This document shows, piece after piece, positions 4,326 to 44,822 of a stretch of DNA of 51,752 nucleotides; the first letter of the stretch is position 1; every line of letters starts with the position of its first letter. Made by a program: the position numbers and the translations under genes. Under the pieces are notes generated by a model, which saw nothing but the letters and a program-made list of their open reading frames with translations, was not told the DNA's origin and ran no database searches. Origin of the DNA: a virus; the UHGV virus genome UHGV-0020692. The stretch is one strand, 5' to 3'.

Positions 4326-5072
4326 CTACTGCGGTTGACCGGTGCTGCCGCTGCCGGGCTGCACACCGGCATGCGTGTGCTGCGTCTGGCTGATGCCGCC
4401 GGCCACCTGGTCGCCTGAACTCTCGACGCTGCCGTTGATCCGCATGTCGGCGTTCATGGTGGCCGTGGCCCCATCGCCATCCCCGAAAACGAGCGACGGG
4501 GTATGATGCACCTCGGTGGGGGACGTGCTCTCGATGCCCGCCGGGGCCGTGATGGTCAGCTTGCCGCCCTTGAGCTCCAGTTTGCCGCCCTGGCCGTCGT
4601 CCAGGGTGATGCCTGTATCGTCCACCATGACGTAGCGCTGCGGGGTCCCGTTGAGGAATCCGCCCAGGTAGAAGCCGTCGCCCTTGCTGTAGGTACGGGC
4701 GCTGCCCGGGTTGGCGGGTTTGCCGTCGCGGTTGGCTTTGATGGCCTCGGTGTCGCGCATGGCGTAGACGGCGAGGCCCATGTCGCCCGGCTTGGGGTCC
4801 ACGATAACGGCATTCTCGCCGCCCTGGATGCGCAGGTACGGCAATTGAAAAAGCTCGCTCTGTTCCATGCCGTCGCCCGCACCCGTTACCAGGTTGACCA
4901 CAGGCTGGACGCTCACCATACCCACCGGCCCCACGGCGCCGGGCTGCACGCTTACCACGCGCACGGGCTCGGCCGTGTTGATCTTGCGCAGGGTCTGCTG
5001 GATCTGGAACTCCTGGGCGTTGTAGCCGCTGGCCCCGGTGGTGAAATCCTGTTGCCCCTTGATCTCGCTCAC
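4326..5072 (-). CDS. Baseplate spike, P2 gpV / Mu gp45-like
   Basis: GTG start at 5072 overlapping the upstream stop (GTGA). Spike-like sequence in the baseplate order. Confidence 0.65.
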   Translation of the reverse strand: MSEIKGQQDFTTGASGYNAQEFQIQQTLRKINTAEPVRVVSVQPGAVGPVGMVSVQPVVNLVTGAGDGMEQSELFQLPYLRIQGGENAVIVDPKPGDMGLAVYAMRDTEAIKANRDGKPANPGSARTYSKGDGFYLGGFLNGTPQRYVMVDDTGITLDDGQGGKLELKGGKLTITAPAGIESTSPTEVHHTPSLVFGDGDGATATMNADMRINGSVESSGDQVAGGISQTQHTHAGVQPGSGSTGQPQ

Positions 5073-5980
5073 TTTTTGGCGTCCTTCTTGGCGTCGCTCT
5101 TTTGCTGGTTGGGATACGTCGCGTTGAAACTGGTCTCCCAGGCCGATGCCCCCGCGTAATTGGCTTGCAGCTTGTGACTCAGGCTCGTGACGCGCCACAG
5201 GCCGCCGGCCTTTGGGACCATGCTCTCGATACGCACCGGACCGCCCAGCATGAGGCGCGGTTCATACAGACAGCGCCCCACCACGCCCTTGGCGTCGAAT
5301 CCGGGGAAGCCGATCAGGCCCGTCCTGTCCCTGAGCACCGGCGTGCTGCCCTGGGCGTCATCCTGGCGCAGTTTGCCGCGCGGAGCGGCGATCATCTCCC
5401 CATCGTCCAGGATCAGGTCGATGCGGGCCTCGTCCGCCAGCTGTCGGGCCTGCTCCATGGGACCGCCCATCAGGGCGATGTTGCGCACCGTCACGGACAC
5501 ACCGCGATTGACGAAGGCGAACCCCATCTGCTTTGCGAGCCCCGACAGCAGCGTGGCCACGTCCTGCGCACCGGCCGCCGTCAGCGTTTTGGCCGGGGTC
5601 ACGCTGGCCACATAGCCGGTGATGGCCGTGACCTCGAACACGCTGGAAGCATCGGCATTGAACCGGGGCACCGCGCTGGTGATGTCGCCCACGAAAGCCT
5701 GCGTCATGCCGTCGGCATCGCCGGCCATGAGGACCAGACGATTTTTTTTGACCGCCAGCGGGTCGAAGGCCAGCGTGGTCAACACCTGCATGTCGTCCAG
5801 GGGCAGGTTGAAGATCTTCAGCGCACACTTGGGCTTTTCCTTGCCACCTGGTTTGCTGATCTCGGCGTCCATGCCCAGGCGCACCACCTTGGTGTTGGCG
5901 GCTTCTCCCGTTCCGGGGTTGAACCCGCCCTCGGCCAGCGTAATGCGGGCCTCCAGCATTTTTTTGGTGAAACTGCTCAC
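5069..5980 (-). CDS. Baseplate hub / late-control gpD-like tail protein
   Basis: GTG start at 5980 overlapping the upstream stop. About 300 aa. Located between the tape-measure-proximal genes and the spike. Confidence 0.55.
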   Translation of the reverse strand: MSSFTKKMLEARITLAEGGFNPGTGEAANTKVVRLGMDAEISKPGGKEKPKCALKIFNLPLDDMQVLTTLAFDPLAVKKNRLVLMAGDADGMTQAFVGDITSAVPRFNADASSVFEVTAITGYVASVTPAKTLTAAGAQDVATLLSGLAKQMGFAFVNRGVSVTVRNIALMGGPMEQARQLADEARIDLILDDGEMIAAPRGKLRQDDAQGSTPVLRDRTGLIGFPGFDAKGVVGRCLYEPRLMLGGPVRIESMVPKAGGLWRVTSLSHKLQANYAGASAWETSFNATYPNQQKSDAKKDAKK

Positions 5981-22809: not shown

Positions 22810-24322
22810 CCAGAGGCGCTCCCTCCTGGCGCACCAAAGCATCCGGCATGGGGGGGAGCTCTCCAACATCAATATGGCTGTACCCGCTATGCTGATCATC
22901 AGCCAGGGATTGGCGCACCTCCTCTACGGAGAGCGTCCCCCTGTCCATGTAGACCGCAGCCGTATCCGCCTTAACCTTCTGAATCTCAGCCTGGAGTTTT
23001 TTGTCCTCCTCCCCGAGTTTGTTGAAGGTGAAAGAAATTGTTGGGTCAATGCGCCCCGTCAAATGAAGTTGCAGGCAGTCCAACACCGTTTTGAGGGGGG
23101 CGAGCATCATTTTCTGCTGCCGTGTCGCGATATGGTCGTAGTAGTTCCTAATGTCGCTTTCCCCCGTAGCATTGAAACCGGATGGGGAAATGCCCAGCAA
23201 CTTGACCGCAGGGGTCCGGTTGACAGCCGCCAAAAACTCCAAGGCCTGACGCACAATGTCTGTCACCCCTGAAAGCGGTGTCTCCAGCTTCACAACATCC
23301 TCGGCTTCTTTGTCCACAACGAGCACTCCGTCATTGCTCATGTTCTGGATCATGTACTTGATACGGCAATCCAGGTTCGATGCCTCTTGGGGGCCCAGCT
23401 TGCCGAGGCTGTCAAACATGTTCGTTTTGAAAACGGTCATGGAAAATTTTTTCAACAGCCGGTTTTCAGCCGCACGGCACTCCTGGAAGTGCAGGACGTA
23501 ATCCCAAAGGATCTGGGCTTGCGGGATGCCCAGGAAGTTGTAGGCAGGTTTGAGCAGGATAGGGACCTCATTGCCGACGACGCGCAGCAGGCGCGAGGCA
23601 TGGACCCGCTGCCCCAGCACCCACCATTCCGTAGGTGCGTAGTAGTTCGGCTGGAGAGGATTCAGCGAGTTGTAATTCCCGGGGAAGCAGTTGACCGGAT
23701 CAATGACGACAAAACGTAAATTCTTTTCCTGCCCCAGCTCGCCAGAGTTCGGGGAAATATCCAAGGGGTCCCGCAAAGTGTCGCCAGTGGCCCCGGTATC
23801 GATAAAGAGGAACGCGCCCCCCTCGTAGCCCGCCAGCTCAACGGCCTCCGCGAAATGTTCCTTTACCCGCATCCTGGACATAAGCCCCGTCAATTCCGCC
23901 AGCAGGTTGTTATCAGCCCCCTGCACAGCGTCTCCTTCACGTTGCAGCGTGATCCATTCACGGGTCATGTCATCGGCCACCGTGGAAATGCAGGCGCGCA
24001 CAAGCCCATTCTGGGCGATGTTCTGCAATGCCCCGTAGCCCATGAACTGCGGGAAGACCCCCATCCCCATTTGCAGCGTATGCTGCAACAGGGAATAGAC
24101 GCCGGTGTCGGCTAGTGCGCTATCCAAGGCAAGCCGGACCTCCTCTTTGCATCCCAGCGTCCGGGGTGGTGCGTACCGCTGCCGCACGTCCTCGATCGTC
24201 AGAGAGGCGGAAGGCGTGGCCGCCGCAATGGCAGGGAAATGCGTCATTTCAGCCAGCAGCTCTGGAGAAACAACGGCCCCCCGGTTGGTGCCCCGAAGCC
24301 GCGATTTGCTTTTTTTGCTCAC
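22775..24322 (-). CDS. Portal protein (DUF935 / Mu gp29-like)
   Basis: 515 aa. GTG start overlapping the terminase stop. Follows the large terminase. Confidence 0.8.
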   Translation of the reverse strand: MSKKSKSRLRGTNRGAVVSPELLAEMTHFPAIAAATPSASLTIEDVRQRYAPPRTLGCKEEVRLALDSALADTGVYSLLQHTLQMGMGVFPQFMGYGALQNIAQNGLVRACISTVADDMTREWITLQREGDAVQGADNNLLAELTGLMSRMRVKEHFAEAVELAGYEGGAFLFIDTGATGDTLRDPLDISPNSGELGQEKNLRFVVIDPVNCFPGNYNSLNPLQPNYYAPTEWWVLGQRVHASRLLRVVGNEVPILLKPAYNFLGIPQAQILWDYVLHFQECRAAENRLLKKFSMTVFKTNMFDSLGKLGPQEASNLDCRIKYMIQNMSNDGVLVVDKEAEDVVKLETPLSGVTDIVRQALEFLAAVNRTPAVKLLGISPSGFNATGESDIRNYYDHIATRQQKMMLAPLKTVLDCLQLHLTGRIDPTISFTFNKLGEEDKKLQAEIQKVKADTAAVYMDRGTLSVEEVRQSLADDQHSGYSHIDVGELPPMPDALVRQEGAPLDDMDKAGAVYG

Positions 24323-25788
24323 ATCATCCTCCCGAACATGGCGCCGCGCCGCAGGATACTGGGATCCACAGTCAGGGTTTTGGCCGTCTGCATGTCACGC
24401 AGAGCCTGAGTTGTCGCATCCACCTGGTCATCATGGGCAGCGGCCGGGAACTGGGTCAGCTCGGCCACATACTCAGAGACCCAACCACATACGGATGGAT
24501 GCGGGATGTGGACGTTACCGGCCTCAAAGTACGTTGTGACCGCATGAGCCCGCGCAACCTTGCTGCCATCGGGCTCGACAGGGATGATTCCCGGCACTGT
24601 ATTCCGCAGGCAATCGATGACCGCCGGGCCATTGGCCTTGTCTTCCACGAGCTTGCGCTGGGCCTGCGGCCATTTTCGGGCCAAAGCCTGGAATGCTGCC
24701 AATGTCGCTGTAAAACCCATACGTCCGCGCACCTGGTCGAGAAGATAAAAATTCGCTCCGGCTTTCCCCCACACTTGTCCCACGACGAAGTCGGAATCAT
24801 CCCCGTCCTTGAAGGTCATGTCCCAACTGATGAGCATCCGCTCGAAGTTCTGCGGCAAATCTTTCGGCAGCCAGAAGCGCAACCACTCGGCTTTGAAGAT
24901 GCCCCCACCATCGGGGGTGGGATGCTGCTGATAGAGCGCCTCCCAGTCCCGGGAACCGATGGCCGCCCGGATGGCGTGCAGCTGCTCCAGCGGGTAGCGT
25001 TCTGGGTGCAGGGCTTCGCCCGCCTTGCGGTGCGTCTCGTCCTGCTCGGCGATGGCCGGGAAATTCACCACGCGCCATTGATCCCCCTCTCCCATGCGCG
25101 CTGCCTCCAGGAGCCTCCCGGCCAGGTCATCCATATGCCAGCGCGTCTGGATGACGATGATGCCGCCCCCCGGCGCCAGCCGCGTGTAAAGCGTGGAGGT
25201 GTACCAGTCCCACACCCGGTTGCGGATGGTAGGAGAATCCGCCTCGGCCCGGTCTTTGATGGGGTCGTCGATAAGGATGACGTCCCCTCCCATACCGGTG
25301 ATGCCGCCGCCCACGCCCGCCGAGCGGTAGACGCCCCGATGTCCGACGACCTCAAAAAGATCAGAGTTGCGCATGTAGGCCCCTGATGCCACGGTGCGGA
25401 TATTTTTCCCGTAAAGGCGCGTCCCGGGAAAAATCTCAATGTAGGCCTCATCATCGATGACACGCTGCACGTCGCGGTTCATCCTGCTCGCAAGATCAGC
25501 GCTGTAGCTGGTGGCGATGATGGACAAGTCAGGATAGCGCCCCAGGGCATAGGCCGGAAAACGGCGGGAGGCTATCTCGCTTTTGCCGTGACGGGGAGGC
25601 ATGGTCAGCAGCAGACGTGGCGACGCTTTACGCTGCACAGCAGCCAAAAATGCATCCAGTTCGGCACAAACCTCTTCGTGGACCCATCCCATCAAATAAC
25701 CGGGGCATGTCGCATAGACGAACCCCACGAGAGACTGCCGGGCGAGCTCTATTTGCAACGCATGGAGCTGGCTCTGTGTCAGTTGCAT
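24319..25788 (-). CDS. Terminase large subunit
   Basis: 489 aa. Walker-like GKS and a nuclease C-terminal region. RBS GGGGGGGA. Confidence 0.85.
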   Translation of the reverse strand: MQLTQSQLHALQIELARQSLVGFVYATCPGYLMGWVHEEVCAELDAFLAAVQRKASPRLLLTMPPRHGKSEIASRRFPAYALGRYPDLSIIATSYSADLASRMNRDVQRVIDDEAYIEIFPGTRLYGKNIRTVASGAYMRNSDLFEVVGHRGVYRSAGVGGGITGMGGDVILIDDPIKDRAEADSPTIRNRVWDWYTSTLYTRLAPGGGIIVIQTRWHMDDLAGRLLEAARMGEGDQWRVVNFPAIAEQDETHRKAGEALHPERYPLEQLHAIRAAIGSRDWEALYQQHPTPDGGGIFKAEWLRFWLPKDLPQNFERMLISWDMTFKDGDDSDFVVGQVWGKAGANFYLLDQVRGRMGFTATLAAFQALARKWPQAQRKLVEDKANGPAVIDCLRNTVPGIIPVEPDGSKVARAHAVTTYFEAGNVHIPHPSVCGWVSEYVAELTQFPAAAHDDQVDATTQALRDMQTAKTLTVDPSILRRGAMFGRMM

Positions 25789-36755: not shown

Positions 36756-37214
36756 TTATGAATGAATCCACCTATGATGTTCAGCACATAGCCAAATCAC
36801 ATCCAATGGTTTTTTATAATTGTCATGGTGGGCATGAATATTGATGGTTGTCCCACATATTTCGCATGGGCACCGTTTTATTTTTCCAGAAGATATAGCA
36901 CGAGCTACTTTTTTATGAGCAGAAGCTTTTTCAGCATTCTTAATTTTCCATCGGTGTAAATACTTGGATTGCTGCTCTGGATGCGCTTGTTTATATGCTT
37001 TACGCTCTTGCTTATGCTCTCTGTTGTAAACTTTTTTCCGAGCTAGACGTCTTGCTCTAAACCTTTCCCTGTTGATTTTATCTATTTTTTTAAGACAATC
37101 TTTACATCGGGACGTTACCCCATACTTACCACCAGCTTGTTTATAGAACTCGCCTATTATTTTTTCTTCTCCGCAAATCGAACACACTTTGAAAAGACCT
37201 TCATAAGTATCCAT
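36756..37214 (-). CDS. HNH endonuclease with an N-terminal zinc ribbon and a basic linker
   Basis: HNH motif CEICGTTINIHAHHDNYKKPLDVIWLCAEHHRWIH. N-terminal CSICGEEK...CKDC. AT-rich. Confidence 0.75.
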   Translation of the reverse strand: MDTYEGLFKVCSICGEEKIIGEFYKQAGGKYGVTSRCKDCLKKIDKINRERFRARRLARKKVYNREHKQERKAYKQAHPEQQSKYLHRWKIKNAEKASAHKKVARAISSGKIKRCPCEICGTTINIHAHHDNYKKPLDVIWLCAEHHRWIHS

Positions 37215-37333
37215 ATATTCCTCTTGCCTTTCCTGAGATTCGGATGGTGAGCCTTTGAGCGAACGGCGCAAGACTCCCCTTGGTGAAGATCACCTCCACC
37301 GGGGTCTGCGCCGTCACGACTTTTTGATTCGGC

Positions 37334-37386
37334 ATGGAGCCGCCCCGTCGCTTTCGGCCCTGCGGACTGTATGCGCCTGCCGCAGG
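37334..37386 (+). repeat. Composite motif copy 1: box ATGGAGCCGCCC(C)GTCGCTTTCGGCCC plus hairpin CTGCGG-loop-CCGCAG
   Basis: Near-identical box at 38383..38408. Stem sequence differs but remains complementary, indicating covariation. Confidence 0.45.
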
Positions 37387-37620
37387 TAGGGAGGTTTAGA
37401 ACCGCGCACGGTTCCCTTGCCGGGCCTTCTCCCTTCAGACTCTACCCGTTGAGCTTGGCACCTGGTTCTCGTTACAGGCCTGCCGCCAGTGGGTTATCCC
37501 TCCCCAGCAGACCGTGCGGGTTAAGCCCGCCACTCTCTCCCCCCGTCTTCGCTTCTCCGCCGGGCCGGGGGCGCCCTGTATCGCGCCACGAGGTGTGGCG
37601 TGATTTTTTTATAGGCCATT

Positions 37621-37672
37621 TTTAGCTAATTGGCAAATACTGCTTGACTGTGTTTTAGCTATTTGGCAATAT
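37621..37672 (+). repeat. AT-rich direct repeats TTTAGCTAATTGGCAAATA / TTTAGCTATTTGGCAATAT (33-bp period), with an embedded TTGACT -35-like hexamer
   Basis: 17 of 19 identity. The only AT-rich patch in a GC-rich, ORF-free stretch. Confidence 0.4.
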
Positions 37673-38382
37673 ATACCCATGGACGACGGGGAAGGCCGGG
37701 AACACGGCCCCACGGGGCCAAGTACCAACGCCACCCCGCCGGACATACCGCCTGAGCGGCAGGGAGGCCCTGAGCAATCGGGGTGTGGGTGCAAAAGAGG
37801 CCCCACCGCAAGCGCGAACGAGGCTCACAAGGGCGGGTGGTTCAGACACAGCGGGCAGACCGCACGGGGCGCAAGTGTGAGCCGTAGAGCCGGACAGCAT
37901 GACGACGCCGAAAAAGCCGGGACAACTCCCGGATATGCGAAGGTGTGGTGAGCACTGGGCCGATACCGTTTTCCGGCTCCAGACGGGCATCCAGTGATGG
38001 ATGGCTGAAATGGAGGCGGAAAGTGGAAAAGGTTTCGCGCCCTGGTCCAAACGCCGTCCAAGCGCGACCGCATCCCGTGCGGCATCCCTCCCCCTGATCC
38101 GGCCACGGACGGCAGGAGCTGCCTGCACGGGCATGGTCGGCGGGTTCGTCGGGGCTGGTTGTCAAAGAGCGAAGCGGTGAGGGATTGTCACCGGTTGAGG
38201 TTCGGTTCCTGGGCCCCAACCGGTTACGCCCTGTACCCAGTTGAATCCCAACTCTTTCCAAATCCTCAACAGTTCCCTCAGATGCCCCAGTGGCTCCCGG
38301 GTGGTGAGCTCTGAGCGAAAGGCCCAAGCTGCCCCTTACCCATTGAGGGGCCGCTGTGACCTTCCGGCGAAGTGGTCCCGGT

Positions 38383-38434
38383 ATGGAGCCGCCCGTCGCT
38401 TTCGGCCCCTGCCCTCACTGCATCATGGGGCAGG
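38383..38434 (+). repeat. Composite motif copy 2: same box plus hairpin CTGCCC-loop-GGGCAG
   Basis: Lies 1049 bp downstream of copy 1 in the same orientation. Confidence 0.45.
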
Positions 38435-38676
38435 TCAGGAGCTTTCCGGCTGATGCGCCGCCTTCCCCGCGTCTTCTCCTGTCTCGCTGCTGCGCTTCGG
38501 GCATGGGGTCGTGGTTCCCGGTAGGATGCGGACGCCACCGTATCGAGCCGTCCATCCGCAAACGCGGCCTACTTCGCAAGGCCGCTCGCGCCTCCGGTAC
38601 ATCGGGGGAGGAAGCCGCTAGCGTGGGGCAGTTTGGTGATGCCCTCTTGCAAAGAAAATCACTTAAAAAAAGTTTA

Positions 38677-38705
38677 TTGTCAATAACTAATTTTAAGTTT
38701 ATATC
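38677..38705 (+). promoter_or_regulatory. Promoter TTGTCA-17-TATATC preceded by the A-tract CTTAAAAAAAGTTT
   Basis: Hexamers and spacing fit sigma70. UP-like A-tract upstream. Confidence 0.45.
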
Positions 38706-38755
38706 CTTAAGCACAAAATCCGTGCTACAAGAGGAGGAAAAAAGGAGTGCTTCAA

Positions 38756-39043
38756 ATGCTCACAAAGGACGATATGACAGCCCTTGAGGCAGCCATACGG
38801 TCTTCCCTCTTGGCTCGGAAAAAAGAACTGTCCATGTCTGATGATGCGCTGGGGAAAATGGCCTTCGCATTTATGGCGAACCCAGCCGGGAAGGTTCAGG
38901 CTTTACTTGTCGGTCAGGGGGCAGGAGAAAAACGGAAGCCTCAGACACTTCGCATCGGGGACGCCATGAACCTGTGTGAAGCTCTTGGGCTGCAATGGGC
39001 AGACGTAATGAGGCAGGCTGTGAAGGATCTCAAGGGCAGATAA
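38756..39043 (+). CDS. Hypothetical protein (95 aa)
   Basis: RBS AAAAGGAG then ATG at 38756. Followed by a terminator. Confidence 0.5.
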   Translation: MLTKDDMTALEAAIRSSLLARKKELSMSDDALGKMAFAFMANPAGKVQALLVGQGAGEKRKPQTLRIGDAMNLCEALGLQWADVMRQAVKDLKGR

Positions 39044-39070
39044 AAGGAATCCCGCAAGACGTGATTCAAA

Positions 39071-39096
39071 GGGGAGGTTTTCGCCTCCCCTTTTTT
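39071..39096 (+). terminator. Rho-independent terminator GGGGAGG-ttttcg-CCTCCCC-TTTTTT
   Basis: Perfect 7-bp stem plus T6. Confidence 0.6.
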
Positions 39097-39153
39097 GTTG
39101 GAATAAAAAACTTAAAAAAAGTTTCTGCTACCCTTGACTTTACACTTAAAATA

Positions 39154-39182
39154 AGTGATACTGTTTTTAACGAAAGGGGGAA
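39154..39182 (+). promoter_or_regulatory. Promoter TTGACT-17-GATACT preceded by CTTAAAAAAAGTTT
   Basis: Same A-tract as at 38655. Confidence 0.45.
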
Positions 39183-39204
39183 ACACCCCGAAGGAGAAAA
39201 CAGC

Positions 39205-39492
39205 ATGATCGTTATGAAGAGCATGAGCCACCATGAGGCCGTTGAGGAGCTGATTAAGCAGCATGATGCGACAACTCCTTTTGCTCCTGAGAATGGGGAA
39301 TCGTTGAAATTCAACGTTGGCGACAAAGTGACTTATGTGAATGACTACGGATGCGAATTTCATGACCGGAAAATTACCGGGATTATGAACAGAAAAGATG
39401 ACGAAAGCCTCTACTGCTCAGGGCGCAGGTACTACATAGACAGCGACTGCCCTTGGATGCCCGTCAAAGAATCCAATTTGCGCCTAGCCTGA
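39205..39492 (+). CDS. Hypothetical small protein (95 aa)
   Basis: RBS GAAGGAGAA then ATG at 39205. Confidence 0.5.
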   Translation: MIVMKSMSHHEAVEELIKQHDATTPFAPENGESLKFNVGDKVTYVNDYGCEFHDRKITGIMNRKDDESLYCSGRRYYIDSDCPWMPVKESNLRLA

Positions 39493-39530
39493 CCCCGCAC
39501 CAGCCCGGAGCCATCCGGGTTGGGAACGGG

Positions 39531-39556
39531 GCCGGGACACCGGCCAGAGCTTTTTG
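39531..39556 (+). terminator. Hairpin GGCCGG-gaca-CCGGCC plus a T-run
   Basis: Follows the 39205..39492 gene. Confidence 0.4.
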
Positions 39557-39764
39557 ACAATCGACGCGACGAAGGCCCCACCGGGCAGTGAGAGGATTGC
39601 TACCTACGCTGTTCGGGCAAGCTGGAGCAGACACGGACGGGGGTTGAGGTGCCGCCCGTGAAACAAGGATCAGGATGATTTCAGATTTCACACCGCCGCG
39701 CAGCGATGGGCGGCGGGGATGGAGGCTGAAACTCCAAGCGAAATTTCAAAAAAAGGACAGAGCC

Positions 39765-39950
39765 ATGACTGCCAATGAAGCCATCAACGAACGTATCGAA
39801 GTCCTGAACGAAGAACTGAGCGCCATCCACCAGGCGCAAAACATTTCCCGCTGCTGGGCCGGGAACGACACAGCCCTGCTCAACCTTGACCGCCGCGAGA
39901 CGGAGGTTTGCCGGGCCATCAACTTCTTGTCCCTGCACCGCTTCGACTAA
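39765..39950 (+). CDS. Small coiled-coil protein (61 aa)
   Basis: RBS AAAGGA then ATG (MTANEAINERIEVLNEELSAIHQAQ...). Confidence 0.35.
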   Translation: MTANEAINERIEVLNEELSAIHQAQNISRCWAGNDTALLNLDRRETEVCRAINFLSLHRFD

Positions 39951-40146
39951 CCCCTCACCCTCCCCTGACCGGCAGCGACCACGCCCTACCTCTGGTCGTT
40001 GCCGGGACTGGGGCCCGGAGAATTGTCTGTGCTGCACCAGACAAGCTGTTTTTACTTGAAATGGGCCGGGGCCGTCGGCATCGGGCTGGCGGCCCTAAGA
40101 TTTCCGGCAGGTTACTTTCTTGCTGTGCTTCCCCTGCCGGGGGGCC

Positions 40147-40246
40147 GGCGGCCCTTGTCGCTCCACAGGGCCCGCGAACTTCGTAGGCTCACCTGGAGCA
40201 GCAGGCCAGACACCCCTTCCCCTCACTGCGTATGCCTGGGGGGTGT
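40147..40246 (+). repeat. Composite motif copy 3 (diverged): box GGCGGCCCTTGTCGCTCCACAGGGCCC ... hairpin GACACCCC-TTCCCCTCACTGCGTATGCCTG-GGGGGTGTC
   Basis: Loop sequence CACTGCGTATGCCTG matches copy 1 (ACTGTATGCGCCTG) and copy 2 (TCACTGCATCATG). The stem differs again. Confidence 0.35.
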
Positions 40247-40256
40247 CTGTCACGCT

Positions 40257-40292
40257 GCGGGCCGCTTCCATCGGGGAGGCGGCCTTTGTTTT
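40257..40292 (+). terminator. Hairpin GCCGC-ttccatcggggag-GCGGC plus TTTGTTTTT
   Basis: Immediately after motif copy 3. Confidence 0.4.
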
Positions 40293-40403
40293 TCCCACTG
40301 CTCCCGCTCCCCGTGGAGAGCAGGCAAAAGCCGCTGATAGCCGGGATAGCGTGCAACGGGGCGGCGATTCATTCCGTCGTCAACCCCGAACAACAACGGC
40401 AAG

Positions 40404-40442
40404 CGCCCGGCGGCCTACCTTCCCGCCGGGCGTCATTTTTTC
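40404..40442 (+). terminator. Rho-independent terminator CGCCCGGCGG-cctaccttc-CCGCCGGGCG plus T-run
   Basis: Perfect 10-bp stem plus TCATTTTTTC. Directly upstream of the RBS of the next gene. Confidence 0.55.
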
Positions 40443-40455
40443 AAGGAGTATCCCC

Positions 40456-40629
40456 ATGCGCGAAGATGAAAAATCCTTCTGGCAAGAGGTGCGGGAGGAG
40501 CTCTCCCCCCGCCGCAATCCCATCGGCTGGGCCTGCGTCCTGGTCATCCTCGGCATGTTCTGCCTGGTCGGCTATTTCGACCATCCCGCCGGGCCGGTCA
40601 TGCGCCCGGCCATCATCGTCAGCAAGTAG
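40456..40629 (+). CDS. Small membrane protein (57 aa, one TM)
   Basis: RBS AAGGAG then ATG. TM segment IGWACVLVILGMFCLVGYF. Confidence 0.45.
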   Translation: MREDEKSFWQEVREELSPRRNPIGWACVLVILGMFCLVGYFDHPAGPVMRPAIIVSK

Positions 40630-40638
40630 GAGGCCATC

Positions 40639-40974
40639 ATGGAACTGTACGAATATGACAGCCTGTGCGACCGGTTCGGAGAGAATCAGGTGAAGTGTCA
40701 GAACTGCCGCAACTTCAACCCTGTCGAGTTTCAGAACACCCCCCAAGGTTCTATAGGCTTCTGCGCCGCCCAGTGCTTTGAGATCGACGCGGCCAACGGT
40801 ACCTCTTCCATCATCCTTCTGAACAACCGCAGCAACTGCTTCACCCCGGATGCTGTGAAGCAGGACTTTTGGCCAACGCAAGACCTGCTGGACATGGAAA
40901 AGGGGCATGTGGACTACAAGGCCACCCTGCGCAGCCTGGACGCCGAACTCCGCCGCGAAGCCGCGGCCTGGTAG
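40639..40974 (+). CDS. Cys-rich hypothetical protein (111 aa)
   Basis: RBS TAGGAGG then ATG. Confidence 0.5.
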   Translation: MELYEYDSLCDRFGENQVKCQNCRNFNPVEFQNTPQGSIGFCAAQCFEIDAANGTSSIILLNNRSNCFTPDAVKQDFWPTQDLLDMEKGHVDYKATLRSLDAELRREAAAW

Positions 40975-44745: not shown

Positions 44746-44822
44746 CCAAAGCGAAACGCCCCGTCCTGGGGCGTCGTCGTGGCGTGGCGGCCACGGCCTG
44801 ATGAGCAGCCAAGAAGTAGATA

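Follow-up and report, generated by a model that had tools for sequence, protein, structure and literature searches.

Two paralogous copies of a structured element

We analysed a stretch of 51,752 nucleotides of the virus genome UHGV-0020692 (hereafter the window), and within it the block of about 1.45 kb that separates the gene of an HNH endonuclease from the gene of a 98-aa protein. An initial annotation had reported repeated box-plus-hairpin units in this block and proposed that they represent a structured RNA. The core of the block is made of two paralogous copies, A and B, of one undescribed and self-contained structured element of about 330-380 nt (table 1). The copies are about 75% identical over some 400 aligned columns. 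The box, ATGGAGCCGCCC(C)GTCGCTTTCGGCCC, is present as described at 37334-37360 and 38383-38408, on the same strand, 1049 bp apart and with a one-base indel. The stems that follow it are also found (CTGCGG 37360-65 with CCGCAG 37380-85; CCTGCCC 38408-14 with GGGCAGG 38428-34), and one relative, L025, adds a double change to this hairpin (CCCGUCC/GGACGGG). Yet the likeness between the copies reaches far past the box: the box-plus-hairpin units are merely the best-conserved part of two far longer sequences. The high GC content that had been given as a feature of the block is not unusual in this genome, as the whole window has about 60% GC and the AT-rich parts correspond to the promoter and the gene cassettes.

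Table 1. Features of the block and of its left neighbour in the window. R1 is the covariance model described in the text.
Feature	Position	Strand	Description
HNH / endonuclease VII-like open reading frame (ORF)	36756-37214	-	152 aa; phrog_2340, E 4e-31; adjoins copy A
Copy A	37232-37612	undecided; coordinates read on +	nhmmer 37234-37613; R1 37232-37363, 47.9 bits, E 1.8e-9
X1 of copy A	37237-37243		GATTCGG, first unit of the internal direct repeat; followed by invariant UGGUGAG (37245-37251)
Conserved UGAGCGAA, copy A	37256-37263		predicted in the gut subfamily to pair with box GUCGCUU
P3, copy A	37264-37313		long hairpin CGGCGCAAGAC...GUCUGCGCCG; best-supported helix of the family
X2 and box, copy A	37326-37353		X2 GATTCGG (37326-32), invariant GGAGCCG (37336-42), box CGTCGCTT (37346-53); box of the initial annotation
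P4, copy A	37358-37387		CCCUGCGG...CCGCAGG; copy A hairpin of the initial annotation
Loop hairpin, copy A	37477-37513		GGCCUGC, 23-nt loop CGCCAGUGGGUUAUCCC..., GCAGACC; relatives have CCUGAC/GUCAGG (four compensatory pairs)
Terminator hairpin, copy A	37583-37610	+	GCGCCAC-GAGG-GUGGCGU, then T7; intrinsic terminator
Early rightward promoter	37620-37675	+	TTGACT (37644-49), 17 bp, CAATAT (37667-72); flanked by two 17-nt operator-like direct repeats
Leader Y	37679-37864	+	structured 5' leader of the early transcript, 185 nt; found in 13 relatives; compensatory hairpin changes
Window-only stretch	37865-38029		left junction of the recombinant insert
preB	38030-38292		non-coding segment; hairpins swapped between relatives
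Copy B	38289-38657	undecided	nhmmer 38291-38657; R1 38289-38411, 40.8 bits, E 1e-7
Core landmarks, copy B	38293-38401		X1 ~38293-38300, UGGUGAG 38302-08, UGAGCGAA 38312-19, GGAGCCG 38385-91, box to 38401
Hairpins, copy B	38408-38557		hairpin 38408-38434; loop hairpin 38524-38557
Second operator/promoter region	38656-38712	+	ACTTAAAAAAAGT repeats; TTGTCA, 17 bp, TATATC; drives the 98-aa gene (38747-39043)

Relatives in gut phages and beyond

A scan for the exact box retrieved two viral and 17 true metagenomic relatives, all from the human gut. These are of two types, A-type (like 37232-37612) and B-type (like 38289-38657), and copy A is kept at about 90-97% identity in 14 relatives. The same scan of 185k reference genomes gave only three matches, all due to chance and inside coding DNA. 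Distant members were obtained by degenerate pattern scans of IMG/VR that were progressively relaxed. The first scans gave the loci L031, L053, L059, L122, L135, L144, L046-L047 and L147-L150. The relaxed pattern gave at least 120 matches, and 86 of the 110 new loci among the matches listed fitted the hidden Markov model of the core over its full length. The counts of 90, 95 and 98 members used below draw on IMG/VR loci among the matches listed, and are therefore lower bounds for the family.

We built a covariance model, R1, from nine non-gut members only, the window copies not being included. R1 finds 90 sites in 89 sources, including both window copies and about 85 further phage or prophage loci. 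Both window copies match it over the full length of the model. Since R1 was made from non-gut members, its recovery of both copies is independent proof that they belong to the family.

Among cultured records, the element occurs only in Paracoccus phage Shpa (33.0-33.3 kb) and in plasmid pC of Agrobacterium pusense. None of 50,697 phage records matched the block in a BLASTN search, and distant members used as queries retrieved Shpa only; against 72,556 plasmids, BLASTN found one Agrobacterium plasmid only. The family is spread over gut Desulfovibrio-like phages, Shpa, the Agrobacterium plasmid and more than 100 IMG/VR contigs. In Shpa (NC_041868, 33048-33443, which is L151 3349-3744) the annotated gp47 lies wholly inside the element, as does the annotated start of gp48. 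The former gene is probably spurious and the latter probably starts further on.

The large terminase subunit TerL (window 24319-25788, - strand) has close homologues that are named Desulfovibrio sp. and show 70-74% identity, a sequence similarity that suggests a host among the Desulfovibrionaceae for the window phage. The hosts of the other cultured members are Alphaproteobacteria. Among the TerL relatives, several reach 740-850 aa and include intein or LAGLIDADG domains (PF14528, PF13403, PF07591, PF14890).

The genes next to the element vary between members (TerS/TerL, replication initiator, HNH, unknowns) and no protein family accompanies it. In L135 it adjoins TerS-TerL-portal genes. A number of loci (L159, L160, L162, L164, L185, L186, L196, L197 and others) are viral regions of 10-14 kb taken from the genomes of isolates, in which the element lies 1-2 kb from one end; these regions may be small HK97-like prophages or clusters resembling gene-transfer agents.

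The element has no matching family in Rfam 15. At the gathering threshold, the only match in the window is Hammerhead_II at 44749, and a scan of 37100-40700 by E-value, up to E = 10, gave chance-level matches only. In 22 loci with other family members, scans at the gathering threshold detected tRNAs and nothing else. The hammerhead match is a type II ribozyme (RF02276, 44749-44814, + strand, 76.4 bits, full length) in the early/replication gene region, and is kept in L003 and L018. ARAGORN found no tRNA or tmRNA in the window, and Rfam none at the element; the D-arm-like GCUCAAUGGUGAG of some members is a resemblance only. A literature search found no description of the element. It is an undescribed family of a known kind, the orphan large structured RNAs of phages.

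A conserved fold

The proposal of a structured RNA family with compensatory stem changes is borne out by the related sequences. For the gut subfamily, we ran RNAalifold on an alignment of 18 sequences (17 distinct). The fold has 66 pairs, 17 of which show changes on both sides, against 1-7 in controls with slid columns. An independent count found that 99.1% of the cells of these pairs can pair, versus 90.9% with shuffled partners and 44-52% when sliding by 1-3 columns. The covariation score is 0.296; the slid controls reach 0.05-0.10. Across the whole family, P3 is the helix with the best support. On the R1 alignment of 90 sequences, 82% of its cells are paired (35-53% when slid), 15 of its 16 pairs have changed on both sides, and double-change cells number 179, versus 53 in shuffles. 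Alignments of distant members made with MAFFT lead RNAalifold to miss even P3, which is recovered only with the model-based alignment.

Read on the + strand, the core starts with X1, a segment that differs between members, followed by UGGUGAG, 2-5 nt, UGAGCGAA or its variants, and P3 (GGGCAUAGGACGAC...GUC-CCUAUGCCC). After P3 come CACGAUC, (U)CACGAU or CGCG, a second segment X2, (C/U)GGAGCCG, 1-3 nt and CGUCGCUU. The part 3' of the core comprises P4 and hairpins with conserved GCUACUU, CUUUCGGACUG and UGGUAGG, then CGCCACCG. In gut copies, the CGCCA strand sits in the loop of a covarying hairpin (GGCCUGC/GCAGACC versus CCUGAC/GUCAGG). The gut-subfamily fold also predicts that UGAGCGA pairs with the box. 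This pairing of UGAGCGAA is unproven, because it is invariant in the gut set and contradicted by a subclass with GUUGUGAC ... GCCGCUU.

Two identical variable segments

In every member, the 7-11 nt that precede UGGUGAG recur before GGAGCCG, at a distance of 84-98 nt. X1 and X2 are identical within a member and different between members, with about 20 X types among 95 distinct cores. Copy A has GATTCGG twice, and copy B has TCCCGG twice, or GG(C)TCCCGG if one indel is allowed. In B-type relatives both X copies have changed in parallel from C to U (e.g. TTCCGG). Each X is present exactly twice per locus, when the chance expectation is 0.00-0.36 for X of at least 8 nt. The mutual information between X1 and X2 reaches 1.24 bits, which is near the positional entropy, whereas other columns, save those of X2 itself, reach at most about 0.55 bits. 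As the two segments are identical and not complementary, they do not form a helix with each other.

We searched for a partner of X in several ways. Reverse complements of at least 8 nt do not occur consistently in the element or in the 3 kb on either side, and the search for the best duplex gave no conserved position. Beside the candidate pseudoknot strand, a member's own X forms duplexes of no better energy than foreign X does. Mutual information with all aligned columns revealed no third covarying segment, and neither X nor its complement is enriched in about 10 kb of flank. X is also independent of operator type, since A-type copies with the same X precede at least six unrelated operator/promoter sequences. 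A pseudoknot between X1 and a hairpin loop does not extend to the family as a whole, being convincing in B-type copies only (GGCUC/GAGCC). Two registers allow the invariant GAGCCG to pair with the 3' half of X2, and many X resemble boxA (UGCUC...); both facts leave the identity of X1 and X2 unexplained.

Other origins of the repeat were considered. Repeats of a never-ending ORF or from template jumping are ruled out by a repeat spacing that is not constant modulo 3, and translational bypass or an intron by the absence of an exon ORF. Target-site duplication by a small insert was discarded, given that homology among all members continues past X2. The suggestion that the units are the ends of a small inserted element is also unsupported. 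This leaves the reading in which a variable partner in trans would recognise X1 and X2 as equivalent sites. We know of no described counterpart, in bacterial structured RNAs, of such a parallel covariation of two non-complementary segments.

Mosaic organisation of the block

Rather than a single RNA of 1.45 kb, the block is a mosaic of at least four modules. Comparison of the window with its relatives splits it into copy A, an operator-controlled early promoter, a structured 5' leader and a recombinant insert containing copy B. The rightward promoter and AT-rich direct repeats of the initial annotation do exist (the repeats, TTTTAGCTAWTTGGCAA, start at 37620 and 37653), but the promoter points into a separate leader, Y, and leaves copy A upstream. 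This promoter was not listed by a consensus promoter scan. The promoter/operator segment is wholly different between relatives. In three of them with different promoter sequences, a -10 hexamer lies 6 nt before the conserved start AUGGACGACGG; leader Y begins at the transcription start of the early promoter even in phages with unrelated promoters. Every gut copy of the element is followed within about 10 nt by an AT-rich promoter/operator segment that differs fully between phages. Leader Y is non-coding, the apparent ATG at 37679 being absent from L008 and L009.

The recombinant insert (37865-39553) comprises preB, copy B and two small gene cassettes. It is missing in L003, and the window is therefore a recombinant that gained a second, L008-like module. 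The preB segment lies ahead of copy B in six of the B-type loci that reach far enough (L008, L009, L015, L025, L150 and a truncated L023). An operator-like motif, ACTTAAAANAAGT, is present at 38661-38673, 39110-39122 and 39144-39156, marking two successive promoters. These drive the 98-aa gene and a 95-aa gene, each in an AT-rich cassette with its own promoter and terminator. Further right, 39500-40445 (+ strand) is a second ORF-poor and GC-rich stretch with three terminator-like hairpins on that strand (39530, 40023 and 40259). It includes a 61-aa cassette (39765-39950) specific to the window. L002 has three tRNA genes (4887-5203) inserted at the point matching window 40098-40155.

On the other side of the block, the HNH ORF is inserted exactly at the edge of copy A, like a homing endonuclease with a conserved RNA gene as its landing site. 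It is missing in L003, and L002 keeps only a 5' remnant (its first codons). To judge from these comparisons, the HNH gene is a lineage-specific insertion that lies outside the element. In L025 (3205-4090), a - strand ORF of about 235 aa replaces copy A from inside X1 onwards; the last 80 nt survive and copy B is intact, which suggests that one copy is enough.

Transcribed strand and possible function

We infer that the element works as RNA, and likewise its strand, its transcript ends and its function. We initially assigned it to the + strand, given the terminators, the G.U pairs of the box and those of the fold on this strand. The analysis of 98 sequences undid this assignment; the early count of G.U pairs was misleading because it was biased by helices predicted on the + strand only. 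The balance now tips moderately towards the minus strand of the window. The family-wide alifold energy of the 98-sequence set is -91.3 for the minus and -79.1 for the plus strand. The helices present in both folds of this set contain, when read on the + strand, 278 A.C cells versus 185 G.U cells, about 130 of each being expected from misalignment, and four of the six informative helices lean to the minus strand. P3 alone is more stable on this strand in 15 of 18 members. Opposite an invariant A, the frequent polymorphism CCCUAUGCCC / CCCCAUGCCC amounts to a U-A / U.G change on the minus strand only.

Gene context points in the same direction. In 48 of the 98 members, an ORF on the minus strand, 80 codons or longer and preceded by a Shine-Dalgarno motif, starts 10-130 nt (mostly up to 100 nt) past X1. 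Left-flank ORFs are minus in 41 cases and plus in 21. In Shpa, the element lies between the primase gene and the next gene of one operon, co-oriented with the minus reading. In the window, the element (from 37232) lies too close to the ribosome-binding site and ATG of the HNH gene at 37214 for a promoter to fit in between.

The reading that we favour, with a probability of roughly 0.45, is that the element is a portable RNA module and that copy A is the leader of a leftward transcript, acting in cis. The element would be a self-contained structured module carried inside phage transcripts and not the partner of one protein gene; it is regarded as portable because its neighbouring genes vary and no protein family accompanies it. 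Copy A would form the 5' leader, of about 370 nt, of a transcript that starts at the operator region and runs leftwards into the HNH gene and an 81-aa ORF, converging on the repressor operon. A candidate promoter for this transcript is TTGCCA (37636-31), 17 bp, TATAAA (37613-08). Its -10 hexamer, TTTATA on the + strand, is kept in all A-type relatives, and the hairpin at 37583-37610, when read on the minus strand, is a stem-loop just downstream of it. Leader Y would occupy the mirror position on the rightward early transcript. The element would affect its own transcript through stability, processing or resistance to termination, and X1 and X2 would be two equivalent recognition sites for a phage-specific trans factor.

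It is important to highlight the observations that weigh against this reading. An intrinsic terminator (hairpin and T7) closes copy A and all A-type relatives on the + strand, and terminators are also found there in L135 and L046. The UGAGCGA/UCGCUU pairing has an invariant G.U on the + strand, replaced by A-U in the Agrobacterium member, and the X2 hairpin is richer in G.U than in A.C cells on this strand. The wobble counts of the gut subfamily are neutral (56 G.U versus 44 A.C in helices found on both strands), and the family-wide ratio of A.C to G.U is only 1.5, far below that of well-established RNAs. Copy B and L008 are in + orientation among + genes, downstream of a + promoter and with no minus gene after them, and about one-third of the left neighbours are on the + strand. 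The candidate -10 TATAAA lacks the usual T at position 6, and no trans factor for X was identified.

Alternative explanations

Some of these observations would be accounted for by a stand-alone, moron-like non-coding RNA gene on the + strand, which we consider possible yet unlikely. Transcription of such a gene would either start at an unrecognised promoter of its own or come as read-through of the repressor operon, and it would stop at the gene's intrinsic terminator, just ahead of the early promoter. The RNA would act in trans, as a protein scaffold or as an anti-defence or host-directed RNA, with X1 and X2 as exposed specificity segments. Hairpin-plus-U terminators do close copy A, L053, L135 and L046, the + strand has G.U pairs in the box pairing and in the X2 hairpin, and copy B is surely transcribed on this strand if the promoter at 37644 fires. 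The lack of a conserved protein neighbour and of a fixed orientation relative to flanking genes also fits this view, and in Shpa the gene would be an antisense-embedded unit, as is often the case with morons. Yet no conserved promoter-like sequence is found upstream of X1, a T5 run near the + strand 3' end is present in only 23 of 93 members, and the wobble statistics and fold energies of the family favour the other strand. In Shpa, the gene would require head-on transcription within an essential replication operon. A further proposal makes the element a cis-acting attenuator or insulator on the + strand, with a sensor and a terminator that would control whether transcripts of the repressor operon extend into the early lytic promoter region. 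In gut phages, an operator-bearing promoter indeed lies no more than about 10 nt from the end of each copy, and the A-type ones close with a strong terminator. We nevertheless regard this as very improbable: B-type copies have no good terminator, and in Shpa, L135, the Agrobacterium plasmid and many others there would be no downstream target of regulation, as the + strand 3' end is followed by a convergent gene or by none.

The conserved feature might also act as DNA, i.e. as a site of replication, packaging or recombination, with hairpins in single-stranded DNA or cruciforms and with X1 and X2 bound by a phage-specific protein. The strand asymmetry is weak, as both G.U and A.C cells exceed the mismatch background only modestly, and X1 and X2 covary as identical and not as complementary segments, as iterons or arm-type sites do. 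Some members adjoin TerS/TerL, replication initiator or primase genes. Set against this are many long-range nested helices with compensatory changes over about 350 nt, wobble-containing pairs included, a repeat spacing of 84-98 bp that is not constant, and the absence of a single accompanying protein family. A DNA-level element is hence improbable in our view, if somewhat less so than the attenuator. By far the least probable explanation is that the block codes for protein, in a form that has decayed or escaped recognition. Both strands do offer ORFs of 90-161 aa, but the initial annotation rightly discarded them: they have no PHROG match and cross mosaic junctions that are missing in relatives. 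The coding reading is excluded because close relatives differ by 1- and 2-nt indels; the ATG at 37679 is also lost in relatives, and the conserved changes are compensatory base-pair changes and not synonymous ones.

Comparison with known systems

The initial annotation had mentioned the GOLLD, ROOL and HEARO classes, none of which is matched by the element in Rfam. There are resemblances to ROOL and GOLLD: the element spans hundreds of nucleotides, has many helices with strong covariation, is phage-borne, lacks a dedicated protein partner and is sometimes near tRNA genes (three in L002). It is smaller, however (about 350 nt), matches neither in sequence nor in structure, and is found in Desulfovibrio-like bacteria and Alphaproteobacteria, while ROOL and GOLLD occur in Lactobacillales or rumen Firmicutes. 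To our knowledge, a member-specific internal direct repeat has not been described for them. The resemblance to HEARO (the omega RNA of IscB) is that the structured RNA of the window adjoins an HNH-type endonuclease gene. This gene is a free-standing HNH of 152 aa that is missing in close relatives, and there is no protein of the size of IscB. The association between the HNH gene and the element is incidental.

The location of the gut element in the immunity region, and its two direct repeats that vary between phages like seqA and seqC, recall the CI RNA of P4 and the C4 RNA of P1 and P7. In P4 CI RNA, the direct repeats seqA and seqC are complementary to a third segment, seqB. The element has no complementary third segment within 3 kb on either side, and its X does not follow the immunity or operator type, as at least six operator types share one X. 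Antitermination RNAs (HK022 put, lambda nut boxA/boxB, rrn boxA) are likewise structured RNAs at the starts of early transcripts, here on both sides of the operator. The core consensus of boxA is UGCUCUUUA, and boxA occurs twice per operon. In many members X is CUGCUC(A/U)..., which is like this core, a likeness that holds only if the + strand is the RNA. Gut X (GAUUCGG, GCUCCCGG) are unlike boxA, and the element is far longer than put (about 70 nt) or the still shorter nut sites. Finally, as in attenuators and riboswitches, about half of the members would form a long structured leader just ahead of a gene start, and competition of two segments for one partner typically goes with direct repeats. 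The element differs from them by the lack of a third covarying segment, by its unrelated downstream genes and by the absence of a riboswitch match in Rfam. Neither the fixed orientation nor the coherent set of downstream genes expected of a riboswitch or attenuator was found: right-flank genes are plus in 21 cases, minus in 22 and undetermined in 48, and the left flank is mixed as well.

Significance

Large RNAs of conserved structure are a rare find, and every new class has in time led to new biochemistry. This one covaries strongly and has over 100 occurrences in sequences of phages and prophages, which come from the human gut and from environmental Alphaproteobacteria. It provides annotation pipelines with a model for a region that is otherwise left blank or filled with spurious ORFs. 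As a cultured phage, Shpa, carries the element, its role is directly testable.

In gut phages, the element abuts the operator region of the lysis-lysogeny decision, and its two identical variable segments point to a recognition function. Of all its features, this direct repeat with its parallel covariation most deserves further study. It could conceivably reflect a class of programmable RNA, a long shot in our estimate, in which a scaffold would display two identical, fast-diversifying and guide-like segments to a trans partner encoded elsewhere, either a nucleic acid or a dimeric protein. If so, it would serve the phage in regulating its own transcripts or in disrupting competitors or the defences of the host.

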